Both the position numbers and the translations under genes were made by a program. Below are positions 10,050 to 34,826 of a stretch of 64,000 nucleotides of DNA, one piece after another. Under the pieces are notes generated by a model, which did no database searches, had not been told where the DNA came from, and saw only the letters and a program-made list of their open reading frames with translations. The stretch is from a virus. The stretch lies in the IMG/VR virus record IMGVR_UViG_3300050139_000095, positions 1 through 64,000 of that record; one strand, 5' to 3'. How positions within the stretch are numbered: position 1 is the stretch's first letter; the number at the start of each line of letters is the position of its first letter.

Positions 10050-10053
10050 CGCG

Positions 10054-14164: not shown

Positions 14165-14172
14165 GGGGAAAA

Positions 14173-15077: not shown

Positions 15078-15136
15078 CCATTGATTGAGGTTTGGCTTAA
15101 TTCGTGTGAGAATTTTTGGGTACATAAGGAGCAAGG

Positions 15137-17472: not shown

Positions 17473-17912
17473 TGTCAACCACACCACTGACCAACATCCC
17501 AGTTCCCAGTGAGGATTTAGATCCTTATTTCGATAACTTCACGGCCATGGTGGATGATATGGACCTGAAGTTTTACGGAATCCTCCAATCAGTTGGAAAC
17601 ATTCTCGTGCCATCTCCTGGACTTTTCTGGGATGCGGCGAACGGGATCTTTAGTTGGACCGGCGATTTCATCATGCCGATCCTCTCCACGAATTTTCAAT
17701 TGAAGATCAGTTTTGGCCCTGACTTGGCGACAAGACAGTTCACCTTAAATGACGGTGATAAAGTCGTGATCGCGTCACCCGTGAGTGCTGGGGCCAACGT
17801 GACGGCGAATTTCTTGGTGGTTCCTGGGGCCTTGGCTTATCAGGCTGGCCTCTTCGTATTCGGTGCGCGGATTGGACAGAGGTTTTACTGCAATCTTCCG
17901 ACGACTTTTTAA
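17472..17912 (+). CDS. Hypothetical baseplate-module protein
   Basis: TAATG overlap with the gpJ-like gene; 146 aa. No family recognised. Confidence 0.55.
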   Translation: MSTTPLTNIPVPSEDLDPYFDNFTAMVDDMDLKFYGILQSVGNILVPSPGLFWDAANGIFSWTGDFIMPILSTNFQLKISFGPDLATRQFTLNDGDKVVIASPVSAGANVTANFLVVPGALAYQAGLFVFGARIGQRFYCNLPTTF

Positions 17913-17921
17913 GGGGTAAGT

Positions 17922-18845
17922 GTGGCAGGATTTGGTCGCTCAAAATTCGGTAAAGGTCCGTTCGGTAAATCCGACGTGGGTGGCGACCTAGTTGTAGACC
18001 TATTCCCTGAGAAGTACATCATTGATGCGGCTCCTGACGGCACCGATCCAATGGATGATCAAACCAATCCACTTCTGCAAGTTTTGAAAGTCTATGCAAA
18101 TTCAGTTTCAAAAAGGCGCGATCAAGTTGACTTGATGCCAACGCTGATCGATTACGAGAAAGCGCCTGATGCTATTCTCCTTTTGCTTGGCGATATGCTT
18201 GGTCTTGGGATCGATAAGAACGATCCTGAATTTTTAAAGAGATCATTTGTCGGTAACGCGAGCCAGTGGTTGCAGATCAAGGGAACTGTCAAAGGATATG
18301 AAGTTCGCGGCCTGGCCAGCGGGTTCGCTGTCGAAGTGGATAATTTTTGGCGCATCGCTGACGAATGGATTCCATTCATCCCGTTGTTTCACCAATTCCC
18401 TTTGAGGTCTGTGAATGCAGATCCAGGTGTGCCAAAAATAAACCATGTCGATGTGCCACCGGGAACTTATCCTGGCACTCCGACAGTCGAAGACGAGACG
18501 TATGCGAAGTCTTCATTCCTGCGACTTGTGTTCACAATCCCGCCGAATAGTCCACTTGTTGGAGCGATCACCGGCACGGGACCAATCGATCAAGGTTGCG
18601 TTGACTTCAATATTTTCCTGGACCTTGTGATAGATAAAATTAAAGATGTGACCGCGATTCATCATGAGGTTATTGCTCCGGAATTTTTGTCCGTGTTCAA
18701 CATCGACAACACCGTGGTAGCAAGAGCAAGTGTGTCCGAAGAACAATCAAATCCGTTGGTCATGGAAGCTTGCTACTTCGACATCAGCGGATTGCCTGAA
18801 GACGTTGAGCCTTTGGACGGATGTCTGAGGGCGTCAATGTCGTGA
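17922..18845 (+). CDS. Tail protein gpI-like (baseplate/fibre attachment)
   Basis: GTG start after AAGGGG. LLLLGDMLGLGIDKNDPEFLKRSFVGNASQWLQIKGTVKGYE resembles the gpI family core (W...KGT..G). Confidence 0.65.
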   Translation: MAGFGRSKFGKGPFGKSDVGGDLVVDLFPEKYIIDAAPDGTDPMDDQTNPLLQVLKVYANSVSKRRDQVDLMPTLIDYEKAPDAILLLLGDMLGLGIDKNDPEFLKRSFVGNASQWLQIKGTVKGYEVRGLASGFAVEVDNFWRIADEWIPFIPLFHQFPLRSVNADPGVPKINHVDVPPGTYPGTPTVEDETYAKSSFLRLVFTIPPNSPLVGAITGTGPIDQGCVDFNIFLDLVIDKIKDVTAIHHEVIAPEFLSVFNIDNTVVARASVSEEQSNPLVMEACYFDISGLPEDVEPLDGCLRASMS

Positions 18846-18942
18846 GTGAGTGGTTTTGTTTGATTATTGACGCTATTGAAATTTGCTCATTAAAATGAGT
18901 GAATATAATAAGCGTAAAATTGGCGGCAGGGGGATGTAAGTT

Positions 18943-19446
18943 ATGGCGAATACTGATCAGGCTATTATCACCGATGATGGTCACAATGCCTTAGCGCAAA
19001 GTTTTGGTGGACCTAGCGGTGGATTCTCATGGTCGTATGGTCAGTATTTCAAATTAGGCGTCGGCGGATTCATCATCGTCTCTGGCTGTATGCAACCGGC
19101 AAATCCAGATCCCACGCTTCATGACATCCAAGCTTCAACGAGTGGAATGTTTTGGTATCGAAAGACGTTCACTCCATCAGATTTTCTTTTCATTGCTCCG
19201 GGCGGGATTCAAGTCAGATGTTTCATGGACACCAATGAGGGCAATGGTATCTCTGGCTTGGAACCGGATACTCCGGATGATCAAGATGGTCCGAAGAACA
19301 GCATCACTCTTGGTGGAAATGCGCCGACCTATTTAGAGGTTGGAATTTTCGATCTTCAAGATGTGATGGTTGCTTACGGAACTTTCCCAGGAGAAGGCAA
19401 GCTGAGTACAAAAACATTGAACCATTTAGTGCTACTGACGTTCTGA
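18943..19446 (+). CDS. Tail-fibre-associated protein (fibre N-terminal-domain-like)
   Basis: GGGGGA SD. N-terminus (AIITDDGHNALAQSFGG...YFKLGVGG) resembles the ITnAG..ala N-terminal domain of P2-type fibres. It follows a 97-nt gap. Confidence 0.5.
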   Translation: MANTDQAIITDDGHNALAQSFGGPSGGFSWSYGQYFKLGVGGFIIVSGCMQPANPDPTLHDIQASTSGMFWYRKTFTPSDFLFIAPGGIQVRCFMDTNEGNGISGLEPDTPDDQDGPKNSITLGGNAPTYLEVGIFDLQDVMVAYGTFPGEGKLSTKTLNHLVLLTF

Positions 19447-19464: not shown

Positions 19465-21441
19465 GTGTTATTCAACCAGACCTCCATACAAAAAGATTAC
19501 GTCAAAGTGCGCTGGGGGGAGCCTCGCGTTTCTTCTGGGTTAAACCAAAAGAATTTTGGCGTATGGCCGGATGGTTGCTATGAAGGATTCACGATTGGTC
19601 CCGGTGGTCTCGGTCCTCGCGACATCATAGTTGGTCCTGGTTCAGTTTCTGGAAACGTATCTCCGAGTGTAAGTGGCGTCGGCTATTTGAATGGAAATTT
19701 CGATGCGGCTCTTGGTTACTCGATTGCAGTCGTAAATGACTTCCAAGGTTTTTCAAACACAGTTCAGGTTCCTCCAGGCGTAAGCGCAATTCAGCATTTG
19801 GATGCTACCGGCCTTGAAGGGCAAACAGTTTACATTATTTTGAAAGTTGAATACTCGATCAATGTGGAGACGACCGCAGAGTTGGCGCTTGTTGATGGCG
19901 CGTACATTGATGCGAATCCTTGGGTTGTGGTTCTTGGTAACGTGATGGTCCCGGCGAGTTCATTGACTCCTCTCGATGGATCAATGTTCCAATACGCCGA
20001 TCCTTTGTATCCCAGAAAAACTCCGCTCGCGACACCGACCAAAGCGGGGCTTATGCCGCCGTCAGTTTGGTCAACGCTTCAACAGAACATGCCTTGGCAG
20101 AATCTGTTGGTCATGGACATCGATCAGAACAATGCTTTCAACTTCACGATTACGCCGTCGCAGTTCACGGCGAATGGAAAAAGGCTTTACACATACGTTC
20201 AGCAAAACGTGTCTTCAAAGTTTCCGCGCAATGCTTTTGGCCATTACAACGGCGGCATAAACAATACTCAGTTGACTGTTCTGAACATGCTCAACGGGAC
20301 AATCGGCGGCGCTCACCAAGTTTCAGGCAACCTGACGTTCCCGATTGCTTCAGTGTCTGGAGTGGCGAACTCATATCAGGTGGGGATCGTATCCTTAGCT
20401 CCTGACGATACAATAAATGTAGTTTATGGTGGAGTGTTCTCCAGCGTAAGCGGCGCAACCTTTGATGAAAATATTCCGATACCTGACAGAACGAATCTGC
20501 AAATTGGCGGGTTCATTATTTCTACAGACGGTCTTGGCCACATCAATCCGCTGACCAATGTGAATGTACCTTTCCCAATCTTGTGGCGTAGACCTTATCT
20601 AAACACCGGCATTGGTAACGGAGTTCAGCCGAACTTCGTGCAAGAGATTCCATCTGGTGTGGTTAACGGAACAAACACGACATTCGGTCTTAGCCAAGTT
20701 CCACTCAACGCGCAGAGTATTTTGCCAATCGTTGATGGCGGCCCATTGGATAGTACGCAGTGGACCTTGAGTGGCCAGAATGTGGTCATGCTCACTCCAC
20801 CGGCAATCGGTCTATCAGTATATATCTTCTACGTTTCGGCAGGTCAGAGCATGGTCTCTGGCGCTCAGGAAATTCCTGGTGGCGTCGTTGACGGCGTGAA
20901 CACAACTTTCTCGCTATCAGGCCAAGTGGCCAACCGTGCATCCACACTTGTCATGGTGAATGGAAGGGTGAAGGACGGATCGCTTTGGAATCTGATCCAA
21001 GGTTTAAATAACAGTACGATTCAATTCGTTACCGCTCCTGCCCTTGGCTCTAGGATCTACGTTTTTTATCTCGCGAATATTTTTACGGGAAATGGTCCAT
21101 CTGGCGGCGGCGGAAGTGGGGCACTGACTCCTAATGGAAGTGTTGGGACTCCTGTCGCAATTACCCCATCTGCCGGTATTTCTATCACCACCGACCAAAG
21201 ACAAGTGCAATATGTGGTCGGCGCTATAGCTGGCGGCAATATCGTGACGGCAAATCCACAAATTCAGGCCGGTAATGCCATCGCACAGGAATTGATTTTA
21301 TTTGGAACTTCGGATGCGAATTACCCAATACTGGAAGACGGAGATGGGTTAGCATTGAATGGTCCGATGAATTTAACAAACCACGCACTTATCTATCTAA
21401 TTTGGGATGGAACGGTGTGGGCTGAAGTTTCAAGGAGGTAA
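19465..21441 (+). CDS. Tail fibre protein (no signal peptide)
   Basis: GTG after AGGAG; 658 aa. Two tandem ~75-aa Ig-like repeats (QEIPSGVVNGTNTTFGLS... / QEIPGGVVDGVNTTFSLS...). C-terminal WDGTVWAEVSRR module is shared with the next gene. Confidence 0.7.
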   Translation: MLFNQTSIQKDYVKVRWGEPRVSSGLNQKNFGVWPDGCYEGFTIGPGGLGPRDIIVGPGSVSGNVSPSVSGVGYLNGNFDAALGYSIAVVNDFQGFSNTVQVPPGVSAIQHLDATGLEGQTVYIILKVEYSINVETTAELALVDGAYIDANPWVVVLGNVMVPASSLTPLDGSMFQYADPLYPRKTPLATPTKAGLMPPSVWSTLQQNMPWQNLLVMDIDQNNAFNFTITPSQFTANGKRLYTYVQQNVSSKFPRNAFGHYNGGINNTQLTVLNMLNGTIGGAHQVSGNLTFPIASVSGVANSYQVGIVSLAPDDTINVVYGGVFSSVSGATFDENIPIPDRTNLQIGGFIISTDGLGHINPLTNVNVPFPILWRRPYLNTGIGNGVQPNFVQEIPSGVVNGTNTTFGLSQVPLNAQSILPIVDGGPLDSTQWTLSGQNVVMLTPPAIGLSVYIFYVSAGQSMVSGAQEIPGGVVDGVNTTFSLSGQVANRASTLVMVNGRVKDGSLWNLIQGLNNSTIQFVTAPALGSRIYVFYLANIFTGNGPSGGGGSGALTPNGSVGTPVAITPSAGISITTDQRQVQYVVGAIAGGNIVTANPQIQAGNAIAQELILFGTSDANYPILEDGDGLALNGPMNLTNHALIYLIWDGTVWAEVSRR

Positions 21442-21442: not shown

Positions 21443-22333
21443 ATGAAAGCCAGGAATCTGATTCTATTTACACTGTTGTTAGCGGTGCCCAATTGGGCGT
21501 TTGCATCTTCTGTCCGTATTCTCGATGGTTTCGAGATTACAAACGGAGCGGCGATTTTACTTTTGCCGACATCCTCAGACACTTTGATAGGTCGAGCGAC
21601 TACCGATACTCTGACCAACAAAAGCATCTCAGGATCAGCAAACACTCTGACCAACATTCCTGCGGGAACGGCCTTGAGTGGCCAAGTGCCTGTGCCGAAC
21701 GGCGGTACTGGTGTTGCGAGTCTTACTGCGAATGGATTGATTTATGGTAACGGAACTTCACCTGTCGGCGTGACCTCTGCCGGTTCTCAGTACCAATCTT
21801 TCCAGGCCGGTGCGTCTGGGGTTCCTACTATTGATGCCGTCCACTTAGATCAAGCTGCGGCTGTCACTGGCTCACTGCCTTTGGCAAACGGCGGTACTGG
21901 CGGAGTCGATCAGCCTAGCGCGGCCAACGCGGTGTTGCCTTCTCAGTCCAGCAATTCAGGAAAGTTCCTGACCACTGACGGAACGAATGCTTCGTGGGGA
22001 GTAGTGTCATCGGTGCCCAGCATCGTTGCATCACGCGCTTCACCGACATTGATTACGGCTGTTGGCGGCATTGGATTCTCAAGTGCTGTTTATGACACCT
22101 ACAATTTCATTGCCGGTAACGCTGGAGCGGTAACTGTGACTGCGACTCCGCAGATTGCTGTCGGTGCTAATGTTGGTCAAAGACTTACCTTGATCGGTCG
22201 TAGCGCGAGCAATACTGTGACGTTAGCAGATGGCAACGGCCTATCACTGAACGGTCCTTGGGTGGGTGGTCTTGACAGCGTGCTCGTTGTTTTTTGGGAT
22301 GGAACGAATTGGACCGAAGTCGCTAGGAGATAG
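21443..22333 (+). CDS. Signal-peptide-bearing fibre-like protein 1
   Basis: AAGGAGG SD; the ATG lies 2 nt after the upstream stop. Signal peptide MKARNLILFTLLLAVPNWAFA|SS. Fibre motifs TDTLTNKSI, NGGTG, LPSQSSNSGKFLTTDGTNASW. C-terminus WDGTNWTEVARR. Confidence 0.8.
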   Translation: MKARNLILFTLLLAVPNWAFASSVRILDGFEITNGAAILLLPTSSDTLIGRATTDTLTNKSISGSANTLTNIPAGTALSGQVPVPNGGTGVASLTANGLIYGNGTSPVGVTSAGSQYQSFQAGASGVPTIDAVHLDQAAAVTGSLPLANGGTGGVDQPSAANAVLPSQSSNSGKFLTTDGTNASWGVVSSVPSIVASRASPTLITAVGGIGFSSAVYDTYNFIAGNAGAVTVTATPQIAVGANVGQRLTLIGRSASNTVTLADGNGLSLNGPWVGGLDSVLVVFWDGTNWTEVARR

Positions 22334-22336
22334 TTA

Positions 22337-25300
22337 ATGCGCGTTTTATTTTTAGCAATCACGCTCTTCGCGTGGACGGCCAATGCGTCGTCTACGCGCA
22401 TTGTTCCTGTTGATACATTCAAGTCTGCCGACATGACGAAAACTTGGACGCCACCTTCGGCGTCCGACACTTTGCTTGGTCGAGCAAGCACCGATACTCT
22501 GACTAATAAGAGTATTGATGGAACCACGAACGTATTGACTAACGTGAGTCTCACGACTGCGGTCAGTGGTATTTTGCCGGTTATTAACGGTGGCACTGGA
22601 GCAAATACGCAGACTGGTGCTTTGAATGCTTTATTGCCATCGCAAAGCGGTCAATCTGGAAAAGTTCTTTCTACTGATGGGACCAATACTTCATGGATCA
22701 CGGGCGGTGGTGGCGGTGGTGCGACGACGGCGTTAGATAATTTAACGAATCCCACTGCGATCAATCAGGATCTTATTCCAGGAATTGCAAATTCATTTAG
22801 TCTTGGAAGCGGAACCAATACTTGGCAAACATTGTTTATCGAAGAACTTTTCGATTCAAATAATCTTTTCGCTATCGACGTAAACGACAGAATGTTGATC
22901 AACAATACTGGATCTCAATGGGTTCTTGACTGGAGTAATCCGGCGTTTTTACAACCTGCGGTTCCGATCATTTATCAAGGCATGAGTAACGGAGAAATCG
23001 GTACTTCAAATACTACGGAAGCTGATCTGCTTATCGACACGAATGGTGGTACGGCAGCGGCTCTGGCCACAAACACAAATTCAGGCTCGCTCATAATGGC
23101 AACGGGCAGCACTACCGGCACTGGTAATTCAGGAGAAATGCTATTGCAGACGGGATTGCCGTCAGGCTCCGGTACTCGCGGCGTTCTGTCATTGAACTCT
23201 CGGACCATCAATATTTACGGAGACTCTGTTGATCAAGGCTTCGAGCAAATCATTCTCGGTGCCATTGGCGGATACGTCGGTTCTGATGGCTATACGATCA
23301 CGACAGCCAATGCTTCGGCTGGAAATGTATCAGAGGCAATGAACATGCAGACCGGAGATGCAAGCGGCGCAGGTTCAAGTTCAGGTGGATTTAATTGGGC
23401 CACTGGTGGCGCAGACGTAAATAGCGGTTCATTTTCAGTTTCAACTGGAACTGGATTGTCGGGCGGATCAGGCTCGATGTTTTTTCAAACCGGCGTATCT
23501 GGTACTGGTGTTGGGACTGGAAATTATTCGGCTGGAACTGGTAACGCTTCAGGAAATGGTTCATCCGGCGAAATCACTATGATCACCGGATCTTCTGTTG
23601 ATGGTGGTTCTGGTCCTGTCGCTTTGGCTTCAGGAGGGAATACCGGCACTGGAAACAGTGGCGCAGTTACTTTGCAAACTGGGAACACAGACACTGGCGG
23701 CGTCGGAAGCATCCTTTTGACCACGGGAACGGCTACTTCTGGAGCGCGGGGACTTATTCAACTCGATGGTGATCGCACCACGATCAATGGTTCTGGAGTT
23801 TTAGAATTTGCGAACATTGGATCTGATCCATCTACTCCAGGTGGACCACAGGCCGGTGATGTTTATTTCAACAACGTGTCGAATCTTTTGCGCGTGTACA
23901 ACGGAACAACTTGGAGTGACATCGCGTCTGGCAGCGGAGCGAATACGGCGCTCTCAAATCTTACGAGTCCGACAGCGATCAATCATGATCTTATTTTTGC
24001 CGAAGGCGGCCCGGCGCAGATCGTTACTGGCGACAGCACTACCGCGAGCCTAACTCTAGGAACAAACTCTGGTGGCGTTCCAGTGGACACCGACTCAGGT
24101 GCTATCGGGATTGTCAGTCAGTCGGTTTCCGGAACTGGAAATTCTGGTGCAATCAGTTTACTCACTGGCGGAGCCGCAAATGGAGTCAGCGGAGACATTA
24201 GTCTGACTACATCAAGCACCAGCGGAACAGGTAATACGGGAAACATTTTACTTCTGACCACACCATCGGGTGGTTCAGGCACTCAAGGTAGAGTAGACAT
24301 CGACACCGATATTCTCCATCTACACGGAACTGGTTTAGATGGAACTGAACAAATCATCCTTGGCAACATGGGCGGTAACGCCACTGAGCACGGTTTCACT
24401 ATTTGGACGGACATGGCCACCATCGGAAACGTATCCGACGCCATAGACATTCGTTCAGGTGACTCTACGCTTACCGGATCAGTTTCTGGTGATATGAATT
24501 TTCACACTGGCGGCGGAGATGCATCTAGCGGTGCTATCAGTGTTTTCACTGGTGGCGCGGCCAATGGCCCCAGCGGTTTGGCGCAATTAAAATCTGGAGA
24601 TGCTAGTGGCGGAGTGTCGGGAGAAGTTGATCTTCTGAGCGGCAATGCAACGGGTTTCCAGAGCGGTAACATCGTGATCGCTACTGGTACGTCTAATGCA
24701 AACACCACTGGTTTAATCAGCCTGACCACTGGTAACGGAACATCAACGACGCCATCAGGACCTATCTTTCTTGGCACTGGTAGCACCACCACTGACGGCG
24801 TGACTACTGGATATTTTCAGTTTGTTACAGGCGCTGCAACCGGCACAGGTATGAGCGGTCCATTTATATGGAACACAGGTACGACGGTTGACGGAGTTTC
24901 AGGCACTGTCACTTTGAACAGCGGTAACACAACGGGTAGCGCAACCTCTGGAAGCGTGACTCTTGTTTCCGGAGATGCGACCGGCACTGGAGCATCAGGC
25001 GGCCTAAATCTTAATACGGGTTCTGGTATCGCTGGCACAGGAGATGTTAATTTGTTTACCGGCGCTACCACTGCCGCCGACGTTAATTCTGGTGTCATCA
25101 ACCTTAATACTGGAAGCGTCACAGGAGTAGGGGTAAGCGGAGCTATTTCATCCAGCACTGGAAGTTCCGTAGATAATTCAAGCGGAGCATGGACGCTACA
25201 GAGTGGTGGCACCAGCGGTAACGGAACGTCAGGCGCATTGACGCTTGTAACTGGAGCATCTAGCGGCGGCGGTAACACAGGTTCTGTTTTACTTGAATCT

Positions 25301-25915
25301 GGCGCAGTGAATGGAACCGCTGGATCTTCTGGAGATGTGGACATTCAAACAGGCCAACCGTTTGATACTGGCGGCAACATCGGAATTCAAACTGGCGGCG
25401 GCCTTGGCACAAACTCGAACACTGGTGGCATCGTATTCGGAACTGGTTTAGCTACTGGCTCAGGAGCGAGCGGCGGGATCTCTTTGGTCATCGGTGGCGT
25501 AAGCACTGGAACCAAGGGCGGCATCGTATTTCAAGACGGATCAGAAGGAACATCCGGTTATGTTTGGACTTCTGTTGACGGAAGTGGAACTGGAACTTGG
25601 ATGCCAGCTACTGGTGGCGGCGGCGGAAATTGGACAGTGGTCAATGGCGGGGATACTACTGTCGCAATCGGCGCTGGCGATCAGCATGTTCGCGCAACCG
25701 CCACGCTCACAGCCGACCGTACTTACACTCTACCGGCATGTACGACAAATATTGGCGAGCGCCATGAGATCAAAAATACTCCGGCCCAAACTTTCAACGT
25801 CATTGTTGCTGGTGCTGGCACCGACAATATTGACGCAAGCAACATATACACGCTTATTCCTGGTGATTCGCTTCAAGTGATTTGTGCAGTCAGTGGTACT
25901 TGGGACATTGAGTAG
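22337..25915 (+). CDS. Signal-peptide-bearing giant fibre-like repeat protein 2
   Basis: GGAG SD. Signal peptide MRVLFLAITLFAWTANA|SS. Same N-terminal fibre motifs, then about 1000 aa of Gly/Ser/Thr repeats (SG.I.L.TG...G.G) with an internal two-module duplication. Confidence 0.8.
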   Translation: MRVLFLAITLFAWTANASSTRIVPVDTFKSADMTKTWTPPSASDTLLGRASTDTLTNKSIDGTTNVLTNVSLTTAVSGILPVINGGTGANTQTGALNALLPSQSGQSGKVLSTDGTNTSWITGGGGGGATTALDNLTNPTAINQDLIPGIANSFSLGSGTNTWQTLFIEELFDSNNLFAIDVNDRMLINNTGSQWVLDWSNPAFLQPAVPIIYQGMSNGEIGTSNTTEADLLIDTNGGTAAALATNTNSGSLIMATGSTTGTGNSGEMLLQTGLPSGSGTRGVLSLNSRTINIYGDSVDQGFEQIILGAIGGYVGSDGYTITTANASAGNVSEAMNMQTGDASGAGSSSGGFNWATGGADVNSGSFSVSTGTGLSGGSGSMFFQTGVSGTGVGTGNYSAGTGNASGNGSSGEITMITGSSVDGGSGPVALASGGNTGTGNSGAVTLQTGNTDTGGVGSILLTTGTATSGARGLIQLDGDRTTINGSGVLEFANIGSDPSTPGGPQAGDVYFNNVSNLLRVYNGTTWSDIASGSGANTALSNLTSPTAINHDLIFAEGGPAQIVTGDSTTASLTLGTNSGGVPVDTDSGAIGIVSQSVSGTGNSGAISLLTGGAANGVSGDISLTTSSTSGTGNTGNILLLTTPSGGSGTQGRVDIDTDILHLHGTGLDGTEQIILGNMGGNATEHGFTIWTDMATIGNVSDAIDIRSGDSTLTGSVSGDMNFHTGGGDASSGAISVFTGGAANGPSGLAQLKSGDASGGVSGEVDLLSGNATGFQSGNIVIATGTSNANTTGLISLTTGNGTSTTPSGPIFLGTGSTTTDGVTTGYFQFVTGAATGTGMSGPFIWNTGTTVDGVSGTVTLNSGNTTGSATSGSVTLVSGDATGTGASGGLNLNTGSGIAGTGDVNLFTGATTAADVNSGVINLNTGSVTGVGVSGAISSSTGSSVDNSSGAWTLQSGGTSGNGTSGALTLVTGASSGGGNTGSVLLESGAVNGTAGSSGDVDIQTGQPFDTGGNIGIQTGGGLGTNSNTGGIVFGTGLATGSGASGGISLVIGGVSTGTKGGIVFQDGSEGTSGYVWTSVDGSGTGTWMPATGGGGGNWTVVNGGDTTVAIGAGDQHVRATATLTADRTYTLPACTTNIGERHEIKNTPAQTFNVIVAGAGTDNIDASNIYTLIPGDSLQVICAVSGTWDIE

Positions 25916-25924
25916 GGGATGATT

Positions 25925-28900
25925 ATGAAAAAGTTTTTTCTAGCCTTAACACTGATTTGTTTATCTGCTTACGCGAAAGAACCTCTCAAGGGATTCTTAG
26001 GAGATCCTCTTCCTGTTATTCACGGCGGAACAGGAACTACGACAGCCTCTGGATCACCATTTGCGCTGAAGGATTTGAGTAACCTTAATTCGACAGCGGT
26101 CAACCAAGACCTTTTGCCAAGTTCGGGCGGATCTAATGCTCTAGGAAGTTCGAGTAATTATTGGTCGTCTCTATATGTGAACGATGTTTTTTCTGCGGTA
26201 AATACCAGTTTGACTTTAACGGCTCAGGGCAATGGAGACATTGTTTTGACTCCAGGTTCTACTCGTCACGTAAACATTGGTCCGAATAACCAATTGTTCA
26301 TGGCTGGCTCAGGGGCACCAATCTTTTTCTTGGACGACAGTTCTAGCAAGTATGTTGGCTTTGTTGCGCCGACCGCTGTGACTACCACGACATTGTGGAC
26401 ACTTCCACTCGCTGACGGAACAAATGGACAGGTTTTATCTACTGATGGAAGTGGAAATTTAAGTTGGGCATCGGGCGGCGGTGGCGGCGGAGCGAATACC
26501 GCTTTATCGAATCTATCAAGTGTTGCTATCAACACACCTTTGATATTTGATCCAAGCCTCTCCGATGGAACTTACATCAACAAGAAAAAAACCTATCTTT
26601 CAGATTTCGATAGAGGATTGTATTTATCTGGAACTATGTCGCTCGACAGCGGTGGTAGCTGGACCTGTCATGGCGCGGATAGCGATGCTTCGGTCCTTGC
26701 CGTTAACAGAGATGCTCCAAGCTTAACTTTTTTTACGGCAACAGGTTGTACCGACACTGCGGCTCCCGCTTCAATGAATATTGTTTGGACTGCCGATGTA
26801 AATGGAACAGTTACTCAGTCAGGGCATCTATTACCTAGCGTGACGGATGGCTCTCTCGCTTTAGGAACCACAGCTAATTATTGGGGCCAAAGCCAGATTG
26901 ATGCGCTGGCTGATGCGGTTGGGGTAGTGGCTGTCGCTCCATACGGCAGAACTTTAAACGATCCCACTGGTGCGACAGCATTTAATTGGAGTGTCGCTGG
27001 TGTCACTCAATTCGGAAGTCCAACGGCAATTTGGGCGACGACAACAGATCCCGTTAGCCCAAGCCCAATTACCGGCGAGATGTATTTCAATAGCGCCACT
27101 GGAAACCTTCGCACTTACAACGGCACTGCGTGGAGCGATGTCGGATCAAATTTGGCTGGGAAAGGCTGGGTAAAGTACACACTCACGTTTGATCAGTTTA
27201 CTGATCCAACCACTTCTCACACCTTGAATGTCGTGAACGTACCGGCTGGATCTATAGTTGAAGCTTGGGTAGTTCATCCGACAATCGCGTTCGGTGGTGG
27301 GGCCATTACCGATGTCGTATACAGTTTCGGGAATGACTTGAATGGTCTGATTTACACGACCAACACAGAATTGTTTACGGCTCCATCTGACACTGTTTAT
27401 ACGAATGAGGGACTGTTCACTCCAATAGATTTCGGCGCATCTCATTTTATTCAGTTTCAAGCAAATTCAACCGGCGACAACCTTGACCAACTCACCGCTG
27501 GTAGTGTTGATGTTTTCATCAAGTTTAAGGATTTGAACGCTGATGCATCCGAGCAAGCGAGTGGTTCTGGTGGAGTAAAGGTAGACGCTCCAACGATCAC
27601 GACTCCGACTGGAAGTGCTCCGATATTATTTAATAGTTCAAACGTGGAATATCAGACAGATCCTGCCTTTACTACCACCGCGAATACCATCACGGCACCG
27701 ACGACTGGTTTGTTCACATTGAGCATGAGTTCGCACGCGAACATTGCTGATTCTTCGCCGCACGTCATCCAACTGTTCTATCAGGTAAACTCTGGAAGTC
27801 CGATTCCAATGGAACAGATTGTGACATCTCCACAGGCTGGATCTGATCACCTATACAGTATGTCCACTCCACTGAGTTTGAATGCAGGTGATGCATTGAT
27901 CTTCTTTGCGGTTGGTGACGGTACTTTTGATTATGATCAGATCACTATTGCATTGAATGGAACGGGCGGCGGTAGTGGCGGGGGATCTGGAGCAAACTTC
28001 GCTCTTTCAAACTTATCTTCTCCTACTGCAATCAATCAGAATTTGTTTTTCGCCACGGGTACATCAGCCGTGCTCCAAACAAAAGATGAAGCCGCGAAGC
28101 CACAGGACTTGTTGATTCAGACGGGTATGCCAACCGTCACTGACACTGAAGGTGGAAGTCTTAGCTTGAACACCGGCAACGTAACTGGTGTAGGCCAAGG
28201 CGGAAATCTTATTTTGACTACCGGAACAAGTGTTGATGGCTCAGGCGGAACGATTGGTCTAGCGACTGGAACATCCACTGGTATTGGAGAGAGTGGTCCG
28301 ATAGCAATTAGCACTGGTCCAAATTCTGGTACTGGAACATCTGGAAATATGCAAATCACAACAGGTAGTGCCGCTGCCGCTGCCTCTGGCGGAATTGATA
28401 TAACGACCGGAAATGCAGGAACTTCATCAAGTACATCCGGAGCATTCAGAGTATTTACTGGGAATGGATTCAGTTCAGGTGAAATTGATTTAACTACTGG
28501 TCAAGCGGCCATAGATACTGCGACTGGCGCTATGACCTTCGACACCGGAGACGCGAGTGGAATTGGCCAGTCTGGTGGGTTCAATGTCAACACAGGTCAG
28601 ACGGCAGATGGAAATTCTGGTGGACTCAGTTTATTGACAGGACAACCTAGCGGAACCGGAACATCTGGTGCTGTGAGTATTCAATCAGGAAGCCCTCCAA
28701 ATGCTGGCGGATCTGGCGGCAGCGGCGGTGTCACATTAAAATCTGGTGAGACTGGTAGCGGTGGAAGTTCATCTGGATCAGTTCTTGTTACGTCGGGCGG
28801 AAATAGTTCTGGATCAACAGGAAGCGCACAACTCTTGTCTGGAGCCGCTGGAAGTGGTGGTGGTTCAGGATCTGTTTCACTGGCATCTGGCGGCGGCGGA

Positions 28901-29317
28901 AGTTCTGGATCTATATCCATCTCAACTGGCGGCGCAAGTTCATCCGCTGGCGGCGGCAGCATTTTCATTTCACCTGGAGCGGGTAGCACGACCAATGGTG
29001 AGATTATTCTAGGCGAAACTCACATTAGAACCACCGGCACAGCCCCGACGTTAAGTAGCTGCGGAACCAGTCCGTCATTTGTCGGAAATGCCACGGACAT
29101 TGCTGGCCGTATTCAAGTTGGAAGCGGAACATTTTCAAGCTGCACCTTGACGTTCCATCACGCTTATAACCAGATTCCGGTGTGTATTTTCCAGGCGGAA
29201 ACAACATCGTATGCGGTTGCTCCAACTGTGCCCTCTTCGTCAGCGATTACTTTCGGTACGTCAGTAGCATTTGGCGCTAACGATAAAGTGGTTTATCATT
29301 GCTTCGGATTGCAATAG
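25925..29317 (+). CDS. Signal-peptide-bearing giant fibre-like repeat protein 3
   Basis: ATG at 25925 is better spaced from the GGGG SD than the ATG at 25919. Signal peptide MKKFFLALTLICLSAYA|KE. Has NGGTG-like HGGTG, three ALSNLSS..AIN junction motifs and long Gly/Ser repeats. Confidence 0.8.
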   Translation: MKKFFLALTLICLSAYAKEPLKGFLGDPLPVIHGGTGTTTASGSPFALKDLSNLNSTAVNQDLLPSSGGSNALGSSSNYWSSLYVNDVFSAVNTSLTLTAQGNGDIVLTPGSTRHVNIGPNNQLFMAGSGAPIFFLDDSSSKYVGFVAPTAVTTTTLWTLPLADGTNGQVLSTDGSGNLSWASGGGGGGANTALSNLSSVAINTPLIFDPSLSDGTYINKKKTYLSDFDRGLYLSGTMSLDSGGSWTCHGADSDASVLAVNRDAPSLTFFTATGCTDTAAPASMNIVWTADVNGTVTQSGHLLPSVTDGSLALGTTANYWGQSQIDALADAVGVVAVAPYGRTLNDPTGATAFNWSVAGVTQFGSPTAIWATTTDPVSPSPITGEMYFNSATGNLRTYNGTAWSDVGSNLAGKGWVKYTLTFDQFTDPTTSHTLNVVNVPAGSIVEAWVVHPTIAFGGGAITDVVYSFGNDLNGLIYTTNTELFTAPSDTVYTNEGLFTPIDFGASHFIQFQANSTGDNLDQLTAGSVDVFIKFKDLNADASEQASGSGGVKVDAPTITTPTGSAPILFNSSNVEYQTDPAFTTTANTITAPTTGLFTLSMSSHANIADSSPHVIQLFYQVNSGSPIPMEQIVTSPQAGSDHLYSMSTPLSLNAGDALIFFAVGDGTFDYDQITIALNGTGGGSGGGSGANFALSNLSSPTAINQNLFFATGTSAVLQTKDEAAKPQDLLIQTGMPTVTDTEGGSLSLNTGNVTGVGQGGNLILTTGTSVDGSGGTIGLATGTSTGIGESGPIAISTGPNSGTGTSGNMQITTGSAAAAASGGIDITTGNAGTSSSTSGAFRVFTGNGFSSGEIDLTTGQAAIDTATGAMTFDTGDASGIGQSGGFNVNTGQTADGNSGGLSLLTGQPSGTGTSGAVSIQSGSPPNAGGSGGSGGVTLKSGETGSGGSSSGSVLVTSGGNSSGSTGSAQLLSGAAGSGGGSGSVSLASGGGGSSGSISISTGGASSSAGGGSIFISPGAGSTTNGEIILGETHIRTTGTAPTLSSCGTSPSFVGNATDIAGRIQVGSGTFSSCTLTFHHAYNQIPVCIFQAETTSYAVAPTVPSSSAITFGTSVAFGANDKVVYHCFGLQ

Positions 29318-29345
29318 GTTGGATGCTTTTTAAAAAGGAGATTGT

Positions 29346-29576
29346 ATGAAAAGCTTTATTATTCTTGTTCTGGTCTTGTTAAGTGGATCTGTTTTTGCGG
29401 CAGCACCTGCACCGGCTCCGAAGCCCAAACCGGCTCCGAAACCTGCACCGCCCGTTCCTGGCATTTGCCGAATCGACGCCCATGGCAACAAGTCGATTCT
29501 TGATGCTCAGAAACGCGCCAAATGCACGCCTGTTGCGAAAGCAAAAGCGAAGGCAAAAGTAGCCAAAAAGAAGTAA
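29346..29576 (+). CDS. Small secreted Pro/Ala/Lys-rich protein
   Basis: AAGGAG SD. Signal peptide MKSFIILVLVLLSGSVFA|AA, then APAPAPKPKPAPKPAPPVPG, two Cys and a KAKAKAKVAKKK tail. Confidence 0.7.
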   Translation: MKSFIILVLVLLSGSVFAAAPAPAPKPKPAPKPAPPVPGICRIDAHGNKSILDAQKRAKCTPVAKAKAKAKVAKKK

Positions 29577-29606
29577 TATTTTGTTGTCATTGATGGGGGA
29601 GATCGT

Positions 29607-30851
29607 ATGCGAAAACTTTTGAGTGCGTTGATCATGGTCATGTCGGTTGGTGCCTTCGCGGGAACCAATCCTGATCTTTTGCAGAACGACGATTTCAAAA
29701 GTCTCGCGGATCTCACCAGCAATGGCAGCAACGTCACTCACCTTCTAAATGATACGAAAATTTATGTTTCCACCACCGGGATCACTGAACAGCTTTCATC
29801 AGCGATTACCGATGGGAATTTGTTCAGGGCCGCATCGGTCTTGACCACCAAGGGTGATACCCCTGGCTTCAGCACCACCACTGTTCGCGTTCCCGTGGGA
29901 ACTGATGGCCAGGTCTATACCGCCGATTCAACGACTGCGACAGGAACTAAGTGGGCAGCGCAAGCTACCGCTCCGACAGATCCGAATGATCTTCAAAACG
30001 TAGGAATAAAGACGAGTGTATCTTCGAGCGCGTTGACGGTTACGTTGACTCAGGCCGATGGAAGTACGGCACCGTCTGTCGGAAGCCCGGTTCATATAAG
30101 CTTGAGGGGATCTACTGAAGGCGTAGGGAGCGTTTCTCTATATAATCAAAGGGCCGTAACGTCGAGTATTTCGCTCACTGTTCCAGCGGGAGCTACACTT
30201 GGTTGTGCGGCTGGGAATTGTTACGTGTACGTCTATGCCATTGATAATGCGGGAACAGTTCAATTGGGCGTTGTATCGAATTATAAGTTAGATGAATCCT
30301 TGCCATGGAGTACGGCAACACTGAATGGATCGTCGAATACCAGTGGTGGATTATACTCTCCTGGATCAATCGTTAGTAGCGCACCAGTGAGATTCTTGGC
30401 GCGTCTGCGCACCAATGAAGCTACGCCTGGTCAGTGGGTTACAAACACCTTGGCCAATGATGGACCTCAAGCGGTCGATCTGCGTGGAGTGACTTTCCAA
30501 ATTCCACAAAACAACCGAGTAAATGACAGATCACCGACGATCATAGCTGGCGTGATTGGATGTTCAGCGAGTCCGACTATTATCTCTGATCCTTTCGGAC
30601 AGATCGCTTCGATCACAAGGAACGGCGGCGGAGATTGCACAATCAATTTCCGATCTGGTTTTAACGCCGGAGCCGGAAATGCGATATGCACTTGCTCGAT
30701 CTACAACGTGCAGAACAACATTTTTTGTCTAAATCCACCTGGCTCTGTATCGGCGACCAGCTATAGAATTATTGGATCACTTGATGGCGGCGGTGCCGTT
30801 GATACTAACTGGTCGTTTATCTGCGTTGGCGCTAACATTCCTGGAACTTAA
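29607..30851 (+). CDS. Signal-peptide-bearing fibre/adhesin-like protein 4
   Basis: GGGGGAG SD. Signal peptide MRKLLSALIMVMSVGAFA|GT. The N-terminal module LQNDDFKSLADLTS...LLNDTKIYVSTTGITEQLSSAITDG is shared with the next gene. Confidence 0.75.
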   Translation: MRKLLSALIMVMSVGAFAGTNPDLLQNDDFKSLADLTSNGSNVTHLLNDTKIYVSTTGITEQLSSAITDGNLFRAASVLTTKGDTPGFSTTTVRVPVGTDGQVYTADSTTATGTKWAAQATAPTDPNDLQNVGIKTSVSSSALTVTLTQADGSTAPSVGSPVHISLRGSTEGVGSVSLYNQRAVTSSISLTVPAGATLGCAAGNCYVYVYAIDNAGTVQLGVVSNYKLDESLPWSTATLNGSSNTSGGLYSPGSIVSSAPVRFLARLRTNEATPGQWVTNTLANDGPQAVDLRGVTFQIPQNNRVNDRSPTIIAGVIGCSASPTIISDPFGQIASITRNGGGDCTINFRSGFNAGAGNAICTCSIYNVQNNIFCLNPPGSVSATSYRIIGSLDGGGAVDTNWSFICVGANIPGT

Positions 30852-30864
30852 ATTGGAGATGCGT

Positions 30865-33759
30865 ATGAAAAAGATTATTTATTTGTTGCTGATGTTTGCT
30901 TGTTTAAATTCATACGGTGTCGGACGGCTCCAGAACGAAGACTTCAAGAGTCTTTCTGATCTGACTTCAGCGGTCTTGTCCACCACTGGGAACCTCACAA
31001 GCGGATCTCCGTGTATCTCTTCACCGGGATCAGTGGCCAAGCTTGGTGTCGGGCAATTTGTCTATGACGTGACCAATCCCCTATTCATTCCATCAGGAAC
31101 AACCATCATCGGTCTTCCTGGATCTTGCTCTGTTGGACAGATTAAATTGAGCGCCAATGCTATAAGCAATGCGACCGGAGACAATATTACGTTTGGCGGA
31201 GTTGTCTCTTCGCTTTTGAATGATTCAAAAATCTACGTGACCGCGAACAACATCAACGACCAGTTGTCGAATGCGATCTCAAATGGTCGCATCGGTGGCG
31301 CTGGCGGAGCCGGTGGTATAAATACTCTCGCGACGTTGAACTGGGACTTCGAGGCCGGTTCAGGTAACTGGACGGCATCGGGCGGGACCTTCTCCGTAAT
31401 CACGGTGAATCCTTTGTTCGCGCAAAAATCAGGCTCATGGACTCCGACTGCGGCTGGACAGAATTTCGATTCGGCCTTGGTGAATACTCCGATTGGTCTT
31501 CAGGGGACGAATAGCTGTAGCGCATCCATTTGGACTAAATGGAATGGAACTTCAGGAAATATCGTTTTTGAAGTTGTTGATGGATCAAACAATCTGATCG
31601 CCAGCACAAACCTTCCATCAATTGGTCAGGCAACCAAGACTCAGTTATTTTTCGCATGTCCTGCGACCATGAGAACACGGCTCACATCTTTGGCGGCTGA
31701 GTCGGCAGTCATCATGGACAATACGATTTTAGGCCAAGATTCTCTTGTCGCTTTGGGTGACACGAATCCAATTTGTACGATCATCGCGAGCACACTGACG
31801 GCTGATTTTGGTGATTACAAAGTGGCCGATGGCAGAGCAATTTCTAGAGGAGATTTCAGCGATTACATGTCTAATTGCGGAACCACCTTTGGATCTGGCA
31901 ATGGATCTACCACTGTGAATTTGCCGGATATGCGCGGCAGATTTTTGCGTGGCGCTGACATAAATACCAACGTCGCAGCGTCGGGCCGCGATCCAGATGG
32001 TGCTTCGCGCACGGCCATGAACTCAGGCGGTAATACGAGTGTCCTTTTGCCTGGCTCGATCCAAGGCTCTCAGTTCACATCCCATAATCACACTATTTGG
32101 GGAAACAATGCCGGTAACGTGAGTGCCGGAAATCGTTTTATTATGATTGCATCACTCGCTGATCCTATTGGCACAGATGGAATTGCAAACGCTGGCGATG
32201 CAATGCGAGACATCGGTAACGTGCAAAATGCAGGTGGAAGTGAAACTCGTCCTATCAATGCGAACGTATCTTATTTCATCAAGGTCCGTGGAGGAACGAC
32301 TCAGACGGCCATGAACATCACAACGGTCGGATGGCATGTCGATGCAACGATCACGGGACCAAATCCAGTATCAAGCGGCGGCAACGTACCAACTCTGACG
32401 GTGTGGCCGGGTATTGCTGGAATGGTTCTCGCAAATTCATTGGGGAACAATGTTATCCCTTCGATGATTGCTTGCTCAGGATCTTTTCCTCCAACGGGAA
32501 CGACTTGCACATCTGGAACTCCGCAACCTGGAATTTCATTCATAGCTCCGGTAGCTGGTGACGTAAGAATATGCGCTCAGTTCGGAACAGAATTAAACGA
32601 GACCGCGACAGGACGACTATTCGGATCATTCACTTTGGCAGAGACTCCGGCCAACAGCGACTCGACCATCATTCAAACTGGCAATGCGATTACGGCATGG
32701 GAGTATCCCAGCGGGTTCAATGGGATCACAAATATCCACAGCAATTTGTGCGGTACATTTCACTTCACTTTTGCTGGCCAACATACGATCCGATTATTCT
32801 ACGCGCAAAATGCGTCAGGAACTCTGACCTCTAATCCGATCATTCTCGCTGACGGATCTATCGGTGGCCGCAATATTCACTACACGGTCATTCCGATAAA
32901 CCAGAATGTTCCGGCTCCTGTGTTCGCAGACATCACGACCTTCAAGAACAATCTTCTTGCGGTCGGAAGAAACTTCATTGATGGATTTCAAACGTCAGCT
33001 TCCGGATCGTTCATGACTATTGGCGCTGGAGCGGCGAACGATAGCACCAATACGGTCACGATAAGTTCGCCAACTTCGTTTACGAAAAACTTAGCGGCAG
33101 GATGGTCGGCTGGATCTGGAAACGGTGGTCTTGATACAGGATCAGCAACAGCCAATTCTACTTACAATGTGTTCGTGATCGAGAATCCTATCTCTGGTGC
33201 AGTAGATATTTTATTCTCATTGTCTCCGACGAGTCCGACCATGCCAACGGGCTACACATTGAAGCGTAGAGTATTTACGATGTACGCTGGCGCTTCCGCT
33301 GGTCAATGGTTTGGCTACAGGCAATTTGGCGAGAGAGTTTATGTAAATTCGCCACAGGTTGGATCATCGTCGTTATCCATTGCTCCTGGTGTTTACACTA
33401 CCAATCTAAGTTTCGTTCCTACTGGTATCCAAGTCGAAGCCGATTTTAATTTTGGTTGCGGCGGCGTGAACAATCAAGTGACTGGATTCGGATGGATCGC
33501 TCCGACAACAATCACAGCGCCAGGATCTCAGACGCTGACTTATGGCGGTAACGTAGAGAATGTAAACCTAATGTGTAGCGGTGGTCACACGGCTGGGGAA
33601 GCTACGCTCCTTTACCATCAGAATAAAGTAACAACCAGTGTTTGGACCAACACATCGGCTCAAGTTAACTTAACTTTCAGTTCTGACAATTCAACGAACA
33701 TAGCTTACATCCTCTATGTGGTTGGCTGGACTGACCACCGGGGAAAAGACGGGATCTAG
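30865..33759 (+). CDS. Signal-peptide-bearing fibre-like protein 5 with phage tail-collar domain
   Basis: TGGAG SD 6 nt before the ATG at 30865 (the track ORF opens at 30772 inside the upstream gene). Signal peptide MKKIIYLLLMFACLNSYG|VG. Collar motif GDYKVADGRAISRGDFSDYMSNCGTTFGSGNGSTTVNLPDMRGRFLRG. Confidence 0.75.
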   Translation: MKKIIYLLLMFACLNSYGVGRLQNEDFKSLSDLTSAVLSTTGNLTSGSPCISSPGSVAKLGVGQFVYDVTNPLFIPSGTTIIGLPGSCSVGQIKLSANAISNATGDNITFGGVVSSLLNDSKIYVTANNINDQLSNAISNGRIGGAGGAGGINTLATLNWDFEAGSGNWTASGGTFSVITVNPLFAQKSGSWTPTAAGQNFDSALVNTPIGLQGTNSCSASIWTKWNGTSGNIVFEVVDGSNNLIASTNLPSIGQATKTQLFFACPATMRTRLTSLAAESAVIMDNTILGQDSLVALGDTNPICTIIASTLTADFGDYKVADGRAISRGDFSDYMSNCGTTFGSGNGSTTVNLPDMRGRFLRGADINTNVAASGRDPDGASRTAMNSGGNTSVLLPGSIQGSQFTSHNHTIWGNNAGNVSAGNRFIMIASLADPIGTDGIANAGDAMRDIGNVQNAGGSETRPINANVSYFIKVRGGTTQTAMNITTVGWHVDATITGPNPVSSGGNVPTLTVWPGIAGMVLANSLGNNVIPSMIACSGSFPPTGTTCTSGTPQPGISFIAPVAGDVRICAQFGTELNETATGRLFGSFTLAETPANSDSTIIQTGNAITAWEYPSGFNGITNIHSNLCGTFHFTFAGQHTIRLFYAQNASGTLTSNPIILADGSIGGRNIHYTVIPINQNVPAPVFADITTFKNNLLAVGRNFIDGFQTSASGSFMTIGAGAANDSTNTVTISSPTSFTKNLAAGWSAGSGNGGLDTGSATANSTYNVFVIENPISGAVDILFSLSPTSPTMPTGYTLKRRVFTMYAGASAGQWFGYRQFGERVYVNSPQVGSSSLSIAPGVYTTNLSFVPTGIQVEADFNFGCGGVNNQVTGFGWIAPTTITAPGSQTLTYGGNVENVNLMCSGGHTAGEATLLYHQNKVTTSVWTNTSAQVNLTFSSDNSTNIAYILYVVGWTDHRGKDGI

Positions 33760-34810: not shown

Positions 34811-34826
34811 AAAATAAGGGTATAAT
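34799..34826 (+). promoter_or_regulatory. Putative sigma70-like promoter (TTCACA-16-TATAAT)
   Basis: TTCACA at 34799-34804, a 16-nt spacer, and TATAAT at 34821-34826, 28 nt before the ATG at 34854. The AAAATAAGG-TATArT context recurs at 34415-34428. Confidence 0.4.

Follow-up and report, generated by a model that had tools for sequence, protein, structure and literature searches.

The six-gene array

The 64,000-nucleotide stretch of viral DNA analysed here, called the window below (positions 1 to 64,000 of IMG/VR record IMGVR_UViG_3300050139_000095), is part of an uncultured myovirus of ~160 kb, represented by a 160,233-bp metagenomic contig (Logan SRR35931007); a 160,330-bp JGI contig carries the same proteins. 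We focus on six plus-strand genes, SP1 to SP6, which occupy positions 21443-33759 (12.3 kb) directly 3' of a signal-less tail fibre gene, F0, and whose products all begin with a predicted Sec-type signal peptide. Five of the six predicted products are modular phage-fibre proteins; SP4 is not a fibre. The genes and the segments discussed below are as follows (a slash marks the predicted cleavage point).

19465..21441, +, F0: signal-less tail fibre of 658 residues, baseplate-proximal, with no hydrophobic N-terminus and ending in the D domain (...WAEVSRR)
21139..21438, +, D domain of F0 (residues 559-658), from BLASTP against the SP1 D domain
21443..22333, +, SP1: 296 residues, 0 Cys; signal at residues 1-21, AFA/SS
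21443..21505, +, SP1 signal segment, MKARNLILFTLLLAVPNWAFA/SS; helix at residues 2-13 in the model
22031..22330, +, D domain of SP1 (residues 197-296), from BLASTP, the structural model and Foldseek
22337..25915, +, SP2: 1192 residues; signal at residues 1-17, ANA/SS
22337..22387, +, SP2 signal segment, MRVLFLAITLFAWTANA/SS
25925..29317, +, SP3: 1130 residues; signal at residues 1-17, AYA/KE
25925..25975, +, SP3 signal segment, MKKFFLALTLICLSAYA/KE
29346..29576, +, SP4: 76 residues, 2 Cys, not fibre-like; signal at residues 1-18, VFA/AA
29607..30851, +, SP5: 414 residues, 8 Cys; signal at residues 1-18, AFA/GT
29607..29660, +, SP5 signal segment, MRKLLSALIMVMSVGAFA/GT
30865..33759, +, SP6: 964 residues, 12 mature Cys; signal at residues 1-18, SYG/VG
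30865..30918, +, SP6 signal segment, MKKIIYLLLMFACLNSYG/VG
31795..32289, +, Collar domain of SP6, a T4 short-tail-fibre-like receptor-binding domain (residues 311-475, HxH motif), from PF07484, phrog_523 and 1ocy

The first-pass annotation of this DNA had proposed six consecutive genes with Sec-type signals, and we recover all six open reading frames (ORFs) and their N-termini at the same coordinates. For the 658-, 296-, 1192- and 414-residue products, the independent gene caller of the source collection makes identical calls. Each ATG in the array has the best local Shine-Dalgarno match (4-6 of 6 to AGGAGG), and no downstream in-frame start in these genes has a comparable site; signal-less isoforms made from internal starts were considered and rejected on this ground. 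From F0 onward the intergenic gaps are 1, 3, 9, 28, 30 and 13 nt, and a scan for promoters and terminators inside the array found nothing above the shuffled expectation, in agreement with the earlier description of the array as contiguous with the baseplate and fibre genes. The simplest reading is that the array and the baseplate genes would form one late transcription unit.

The predicted signals are 17-21 residues long. In all six, the initial Met is followed by a Lys or Arg within the first four residues, giving a basic n-region; the h-region is an uncharged, Leu-rich core of Leu, Ile, Val and Phe, and small neutral residues occupy positions -3 and -1 (the AxA rule). None of the six has a twin arginine or a lipobox Cys at +1, and routing by Tat or as lipoproteins was rejected for want of either motif. 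The signal calls are based on a rule-based heuristic together with the comparative evidence given below. In its crude form the heuristic scores 10 of 81 ORFs in the window as positive, four of them array genes and six outside the array; the remaining two array genes were not called by the crude gene caller, and three of the six outside positives look like chance. Six consecutive positives would be expected by chance with a probability of roughly 1e-5.

Domain architecture of the array proteins

The mature proteins are assembled from a small set of modules. SP1 has a conserved mature N-terminus (RILDG...TDTLTNKSI) after the signal, then NGGTG repeats and the D domain (SP1-type). SP2 combines an SP1-like N-terminus with a Gly/Ser/Thr shaft, whose period is ~15-16 residues, and a C-terminal domain with two Cys. 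SP3, with six mature Cys, has a mature N-terminus of its own, then a shaft that is homologous to the SP2 shaft, and ends in a C-terminal domain. SP5 has a mature N-terminus of a further type, class C (LQNDDFKSLADLTS...LLNDTKIYV), followed by a central beta-sandwich and a Cys-rich C-terminus; SP6 has the class C N-terminus as well as large C-terminal domains. Three unrelated classes of mature N-terminus can be told apart (SP1 and SP2; SP3; SP5 and SP6), and SP4 is unrelated to all of them. SP4 consists of Ala-Pro and Lys-Pro repeats together with a segment holding two cysteines and a tail rich in Lys and Ala, and family searches gave it no homologue or family match. The shaft and N-terminal motifs are common to hundreds of viral fibre ORFs.

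The first-pass annotation had called five of the six proteins fibre-like (implying that the 76-residue SP4 was not), with a tail-collar domain in the last protein, a C-terminal module common to F0 and SP1, and N-terminal and shaft modules shared among the array proteins; all of this is borne out. SP6 matches PF07484 (E 9.5e-10), the PHROG family phrog_523, 'tail collar fiber protein' (E 1.6e-11), and the structure of T4 gp12 (PDB 1ocy, E 6.7e-5). Residues 559-658 of F0 and 197-296 of SP1 are 39% identical over 100 residues (BLASTP, E 8e-17), and the F0 C-terminus has a weak Phage_depo_C match. The AlphaFold model of SP1 is confident only at residues 190-296, a beta-sandwich that is the D domain. 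Foldseek, which the annotation had proposed as a check, matches this model only to phage tailspike, depolymerase and fibre parts, including a Klebsiella phage baseplate component; its match to the N-terminal docking region (residues 1-250) of CBA120 TSP4 is weak (E 4.5e-3, probability 1.0). The SP5 model is poor (pLDDT 58.8) and has no Foldseek match at E <= 1e-3, and sequence searches of the PDB with SP2, SP3 and an SP1 profile returned chance-level matches only. In Pfam and PHROG, the six show no catalytic domain (pectate lyase, glycosidase, esterase or peptidase) and no recognised outer-membrane anchor, targeting domain or sorting signal.

Conservation of the signals and parity of cysteine counts

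SP1 has 595 homologues; 118 of the best 120 have a signal, and the exceptions look truncated. The sequence of the signal is not conserved among them; its properties are. With 115 homologues anchored on a conserved Arg, the residue at -1 is Ala in 90, Gly in 16 and Ser in 4 (A, G or S in 110/115, 96%), and that at -3 is Ala in 89, Val in 8, Ser in 7 and Thr in 4 (A, V, S or T in 108/115, 94%). The -2 position is bulky, the n-region has a net charge of +1 or +2 in 107/115, and the median uncharged stretch, c-region included, is 19 residues. This pattern indicates that the AxA rule is maintained by selection in the SP1 family and that the predicted signals are genuine. A search of 1.84 billion cluster representatives gives 18,744 relatives of SP6 at E <= 1e-3; the heuristic scores 124 of the best 150 as signal-positive, and about nine more are positive by eye. 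As a control, we scored 81 complete IMG/VR viral ORFs sharing the motif TDTL[TSQ]NK. Only five were positive, two of them true members of the SP1 family, so the signal is not a general property of fibres.

The mature proteins SP1 to SP6 contain 0, 2, 6, 2, 8 and 12 Cys. We compared cysteine parity between a signal-bearing set and the signal-less tail and baseplate proteins of the same loci. The signal-bearing set comprises the fibre-like proteins of the window, of eight related phage loci, of three prophages and of two cultured phages, together with a secreted S8 protease of the window, SP4 and three other small secreted ORFs.

Signal-bearing proteins: zero Cys, 4; even, 29; odd, 3
Signal-less tail and baseplate proteins: zero Cys, 11; even, 9; odd, 24

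The difference between even and odd counts gives p = 1.4e-7 by Fisher's exact test, with counts that include homologous domains and are not fully independent. Within the SP1 family, Cys numbers are 0 in 79 proteins, 1 in 3, 2 in 36 and 4 in 2. An even-cysteine bias is a signature of proteins whose disulfides form outside the cytoplasm.

A signal-less relative gives a further view of the cleavage point. Many homologues have, after a signal, the same mature N-terminus as SP5 and SP6 (G[RK]LQNEDFKSL...LLNDTKIY), and P0151 (L158:7522-9687; 721 residues with a Collar domain) is a signal-less orthologue of this class. It begins MGGKLQNEDFKSL, exactly at the predicted mature end, and its upstream frame is closed by a stop. 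P0151 occupies the fibre position in an AT-rich, siphovirus-like tail module, which suggests that the same fibre type works elsewhere as an ordinary tail component. Taken together, the gene and protein sequences indicate that these fibre proteins are very probably exported, cleaved and oxidatively folded.

Recurrence of the cassette in other phages

The order seen in the window, a signal-less proximal fibre or stub followed by one to five signal-bearing fibres, is found in at least nine other phage backbones, which include Mu-like, P2-like and Pam3/E217-like phages and phages of 157-181 kb. The GC content of the cassette-carrying phages spans 38-53%, so several host groups are probably involved, and a single narrow host clade was rejected for the same reason. 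Several of these phages recur in dozens of assemblies. Gene orders at related loci are listed here (sizes in residues).

L004, 39.5-kb contig (the same protein is also on a 157-kb contig): signal-less 981, then signal-bearing 306 and 377
L242, 181 kb: signal-less 1383, then signal-bearing 311, 816, 302 and 717
L159, Mu-like, 48 kb: signal-less 518, then signal-bearing 246, 559 and 534
L243/L244, Mu-like, 49 kb: signal-less 502, signal-bearing 318, a 216-residue ORF of uncertain start, signal-bearing 801, then holin and endolysin
L078, P2-like, 54 kb: signal-bearing 387, 352 and 554, interleaved with lysis-type genes
L249, Pam3/E217-like, 56 kb: signal-less 704, then signal-bearing ~309, 146 and 895
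L251, 23 kb: signal-less 439, then signal-bearing 692 (Collar, 12 Cys) and 253
L002, 47.5 kb: signal-less 176 with a D domain, then signal-bearing 291 and ~560
L240, 43 kb: signal-less 135, then signal-bearing 309, 729 and 103; adjoins terminase

In the window and most related loci the cassette is placed in the tail module by the baseplate genes, L240 being the exception. Signal-less orthologues with a D domain precede the signal-bearing genes in L002, L004, L159, L240, L242, L243, L244 and L249. Across phages, the F0-type D domains are 44-55% identical (the 135-residue protein of L240 is divergent, at 22-32%) and the SP1-type D domains 44-68%, whereas the two types within one genome are only 33-45% identical. 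The two types therefore represent ancient paralogues, each conserved in its own right, which speaks against a decoy tip that tracks the virion tip, and for a conserved structural role or a conserved target; the separate conservation of both types appears to fit structural docking better than a variable receptor tip.

The simplest form of the arrangement occurs in L248, a Mu-like phage of 43 kb present in at least 22 contigs, with a tail module recognisable from the sheath to gp48. After gp48 the module has two genes only, for a signal-less protein of 195 residues and a signal-bearing protein of 721 residues with 12 Cys, and then transcription reverses. The first 80-95 residues of the 195-residue stub match the N-terminal domain of several PHROG tail-fibre families (best E 2.4e-15, to profile positions 1-79 of 322). 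As the sole long fibre gene of L248 is signal-bearing, the exported fibre would be its only long one, unless the stub suffices.

Ten sampled SP6 relatives lie on contigs of 5.6-175 kb, none of chromosomal size. Scans with an SP1 alignment of GTDB species-representative genomes, IMG/VR and JGI metagenomes were dominated by a ubiquitous short motif, LPxxTDTLVGRATTDTLTNK, and gave only three full-length relatives. Many cellular proteins with the same shaft motif also begin with signals. Among these scan loci are four large signal-bearing cellular proteins of 722-1560 residues (L005, L010, L041 and L050) from the metagenome-assembled genome (MAG) 'Proteobacteria bacterium LacPavin_0920_SED2_MAG_57_20'. 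The four have a common N-terminal domain right after the signal (..F.Y.GRL....G.PV.GPV.L...F) and shafts with TDTLTNK and NGGTG motifs as in phage fibres, and form a MAT-like paralogue family (see below).

Relation to known systems

Signal-bearing fibre-like proteins of another family are found in three cultured phages and in a prophage.

L250:3501-4574, gp19 of BcepC6B, a temperate podovirus of Burkholderia
L246:3995-4927, gp48 of KL4, a temperate podovirus of Burkholderia
L245:4013-4822, orf035 of PBR31, a temperate podovirus of Xanthomonas
L029:9281-10606, signal-bearing fibre-like prophage gene of Cupriavidus necator

These analogues have the signature MKK...A[LF][GSA]/AT[LT]...LxNPAGS and 0-4 Cys across the three phages and the prophage; those of BcepC6B, KL4 and PBR31 have 269-357 residues and 2-4 Cys. 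They differ from the window in belonging to a different family (N-terminus ATLxPxQLxNPAGS) and in being a single gene rather than an array. Each follows a tail-fibre or tailspike gene, which it overlaps by 4 nt in KL4; the gaps are 5 and 11 nt in the other two phages and 3 nt in the prophage. The next gene encodes a holin in all three phages and a holin-like protein in the prophage. The analogues are placed in the late operon and are not independent accessory units. They are annotated as 'tail fiber' or 'structural protein'; in the literature found, the signal on the BcepC6B, KL4 and PBR31 proteins is not noted, and the PBR31 paper is silent on both orf035 and its signal. Nor do papers on contractile injection systems, Klebsiella DsbA, PBR31 and BcepC6B mention signal peptides on tail-fibre arrays. 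Two points go beyond the first-pass annotation: the cassette is conserved and occurs widely, and an analogue of it exists in cultured phages.

The gene order of the window resembles that of CBA120 (TSP1-4), phi92, G7C and T4 (gp34-gp37), in which consecutive modular fibre or spike genes come right after the baseplate genes. The multi-fibre arrays of myoviruses likewise have conserved N-terminal adaptors, variable tips and fibres split over several polypeptides; in branched complexes of the CBA120 type, other spikes are held by dedicated gp10-like XD docking domains. To our knowledge, however, all known arrays of this kind lack export signals and are assembled in the cytoplasm, whereas in the window each distal component carries a conserved Sec signal, predicted to be cleavable, along with paired cysteines. 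The six depart from the usual description of tail fibres as folded in the cytoplasm and free of export signals. The only virion receptor-binding protein known to us that uses Sec and periplasmic disulfides is g3p of the filamentous phages, whose virions are assembled at the membrane by extrusion, and we know of no tailed phage that routes virion fibres through Sec. Sec-exported or SAR endolysins use host Sec and lie outside the cytoplasm before release; they are not virion parts. T5 Llp, phi80 and N15 Cor, and lambda Lom and Bor are signal-bearing envelope proteins encoded beside fibre genes. These are small lipoproteins or outer-membrane proteins without fibre modules, whereas the products of the array have 296-1192 residues (76 in SP4) and signal-peptidase-I sites without a lipobox.

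The closest cellular parallel is the MAT (mosaic adhesive trimer) family of Bdellovibrio bacteriovorus, in which signal-bearing, phage-fibre-like trimers with swappable tips reach the cell surface (PMC10769870). The array resembles it in having a signal followed by fibre architecture with swappable tips, and in its repertoire of several paralogues. It differs in that the genes lie in a phage tail operon rather than among the chromosomal genes of a predator, and in having three unrelated mature N-termini, whereas all 21 MATs share one conserved beta-rich N-terminal domain of ~130 residues and 13 end in an S74 protease (PMC10769870). Pfam finds no S74 domain in the six; SP2, SP3, SP6 and the SP1 profile have no sequence match at E <= 1 to the solved MAT entries of the PDB, and none of 73 loci from the GTDB species-representative scan is titled Bdellovibrio. 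Membership of the MAT family and a Bdellovibrio host were rejected, as no match supports them and the six have no common N-terminal domain.

The tail module and neighbouring genes

A near-identity DNA search with 25 kb against 50,697 cultured phage records found no match, and the sheath of the window is at most ~31% identical to known sheaths; the source is therefore a large, novel myovirus-type phage. The window also encodes a UvrD-type helicase, DnaB and a primase for replication, and no tRNA was found. The tail genes upstream of the array are the following.

3126-4934, tail sheath
4945-5463, tail tube
6525..7604, +, secreted S8 subtilase, PF00082 E 3.1e-50; N-terminus MKFLLLVLSLLSVDVYA/KE (signal-peptidase-I type), 2 mature Cys
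10054-12018, tape measure
12018..19446, +, baseplate genes (hub, wedge/J-like and others), matching PHROG baseplate hub and wedge families; directly 5' of the fibre genes

The S8 subtilase gene lies between the tube and tape-measure genes, an unusual spot for a secreted protease. The enzyme might process exported fibres or envelope components, a link to the fibres that we infer only. Two tail-tube paralogues stand side by side (4945-5463 and 5447-6037, +), and a third tube-like ORF (35479-36375, +; PF19266 CIS_tube, E 1.2e-7) lies 3' of the fibre array, apart from the other tail genes. Just before it, at 34854-35408 (+), is a signal-bearing ORF of 184 residues (...APLAFA/QAAG) without a family match; the best sigma-70-like site of the region (11/12) is found upstream of it, at 34799-34826, and it may encode an independently expressed exported protein. 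On the minus strand, at 41021-42297, a lipoprotein of 160 residues (MKTLMHVLSALISICLFVG/C) adjoins a PAPS-reductase-like protein.

Sugar-nucleotide and polysaccharide genes occur at 10-672, 36983-38017 and 46086-48785 (+); the set comprises an NTP transferase, an NAD-dependent epimerase/dehydratase, a polysaccharide pyruvyl transferase, a GT4 glycosyltransferase and a methyltransferase. Their products could modify phage proteins or glycans on the host surface. A 2OG-Fe(II) oxygenase is encoded at 62083-62877. Tet_JBP and TAGT genes are present in the related phages L244 and L249, which suggests DNA hypermodification in this phage group.

Proposed assembly model and alternatives

The first-pass annotation had noted that standard cytoplasmic virion assembly does not explain the array, a judgement with which we concur, and had offered an envelope-dependent route of fibre maturation among several explanations. 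This is the option that the comparative data support best, especially the split fibre of L248. We propose, with confidence somewhat short of even and from sequence evidence, a model in which the distal receptor-binding fibres pass through export and periplasmic oxidation before they dock on tails at lysis. The fibres would be split or branched, and the signal-bearing proteins would form their variable distal parts, which bind receptors. These proteins would be made late, together with the tail, and cross SecYEG unfolded; cleavage by signal peptidase I would expose their conserved docking N-termini. Folding, trimerisation and disulfide formation would take place in the periplasm, and the fibres would dock on tails built in the cytoplasm when holin lesions or lysis join the periplasm to the cytoplasm. 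F0 or the stub proteins and the D domains would mediate docking, in a possibly branched or daisy-chained manner. The benefit would be disulfide-stabilised receptor-binding domains, which are impossible in a reducing cytoplasm. Late docking is physically plausible, since T4 long fibres can be joined to completed particles in vitro and the holes that canonical holins open in the inner membrane are very large and precede failure of the outer membrane. A role on the virion also appears to be favoured by the position of the array, which sits where multi-fibre arrays sit and seems translationally coupled. More generally, a large, widespread set of Gram-negative tailed phages may have two-compartment split fibres, a possibility that we hold more loosely still; the proximal stub would be built onto the baseplate in the cytoplasm and the distal modules would join only when lysis begins.

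Several points weigh against late docking on the virion. Particles and fibres would be topologically separate until lysis, when attachment would have to compete with dilution. The docking idea draws on the weak Foldseek match (E 4.5e-3) and on predicted monomer models that are poor outside the D domain, and the cysteine parity counts are subject to the shared homology already stated. The L240 cassette adjoins terminase and not the baseplate, and in L078 the N-terminus of the F0-type D-domain protein (9575-10213, 212 residues) is hydrophobic and resembles that of a lipoprotein (...HTIFSC). In cultured phages, tblastn with SP1 and the SP6 N-terminus found no homologue of the SP1 or class C families, and a full-text literature search found no description of exported tail fibres in tailed phages.

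The main rival is that the proteins are exported and never join the virion, acting instead as adhesins in the envelope or medium, as receptor-masking or superinfection-exclusion factors, or as free fibres that coat receptors on debris. The plainest reading of a signal peptide is that the protein acts outside the cytoplasm, and the evidence for export applies equally here; T5 Llp, Cor and lambda Lom are precedents encoded beside receptor-binding genes, many cellular proteins with the shaft motif are signal-bearing, and the L240 cassette lies away from the baseplate genes. Bdellovibrio MAT proteins show that signal-bearing fibre-like trimers can stand at the cell surface (PMC10769870); of the earlier suggestion of Bdellovibrio-like adhesins, the analogy stands as possible, whereas membership falls for want of a common N-terminal domain, an S74 domain, a MAT match or a Bdellovibrio record. 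However, the genes appear translationally coupled to late tail genes and are not moron-like units, Pfam finds no outer-membrane targeting or anchoring domain, and 12.3 kb of modular receptor-binding-type genes is a large cost for an accessory role. If the exported fibre were off the virion, L248 would be left with a stub of 195 residues as its sole fibre. The earlier idea of receptor decoys, taken as copies of the virion tip, is disfavoured in particular, as the D domains are two old paralogous lineages (33-45% identical within a genome) with no within-genome match, and the other signal-bearing tips have no signal-less twin. On balance we consider an off-virion role less likely than late docking, though not by a wide margin.

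We give considerably less credence to the proposal that the proteins, once exported, work as enzymes or assist release or entry, binding or degrading envelope polymers such as capsule, S-layer or O-antigen after secretion or from within the periplasm, perhaps with the S8 protease. Phage depolymerases have C-terminal domains with the D-domain fold, the tail module includes a signal-bearing S8 subtilase, arrays in relatives directly abut holin and endolysin genes, and lectin-like tips occur in homologues (Laminin_G_3, an unmarked hit, and C1q, a faint one). Yet Pfam and PHROG reveal no catalytic domain in the six, SP6 has a T4 gp12-type receptor-binding domain and not an enzyme fold, and lysis cassettes commonly follow fibre genes anyway. 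Least probable of all, in our view, is that the N-termini are not export signals and that these are ordinary cytoplasmic fibres, their hydrophobic starts being uncleaved anchors, assembly helices or annotation artefacts. Other tail fibres are known only as cytoplasmic proteins, which is the attraction of this explanation, and uncleaved anchors had been among the options first put forward. It is countered by the -3/-1 AxA pattern kept in ~95% of 115 homologues around a core without sequence conservation, by the strong even-cysteine bias, by P0151, which begins at the predicted cleavage point, by the Shine-Dalgarno-backed starts without alternatives, and by ordinary fibres with the same motif, which almost never carry such N-termini.

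Implications

The signal-bearing array is a real, non-random, conserved and apparently undescribed feature of phage fibre proteins. SP6 relatives alone make up thousands of sequence clusters. Either the feature reflects an unrecognised route of periplasmic maturation and late docking, or a large fibre-derived repertoire is deployed in the host envelope. The question is directly testable because BcepC6B, KL4 and PBR31, which are in culture, carry an analogous gene. It bears on the prediction and annotation of receptor-binding proteins in metagenomes, on their engineering, for which periplasmic expression and disulfides would be needed, and on the host factors (Sec, signal peptidase and Dsb) for phage production. 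Virions of tailed phages are taught to be assembled wholly in the cytoplasm, and their receptor-binding proteins are the main determinants of host range. If the two-compartment route is true, the assembly of tailed phages would not be purely cytoplasmic, and the Sec, signal-peptidase-I and Dsb systems of the host would be determinants of host range and infectivity.

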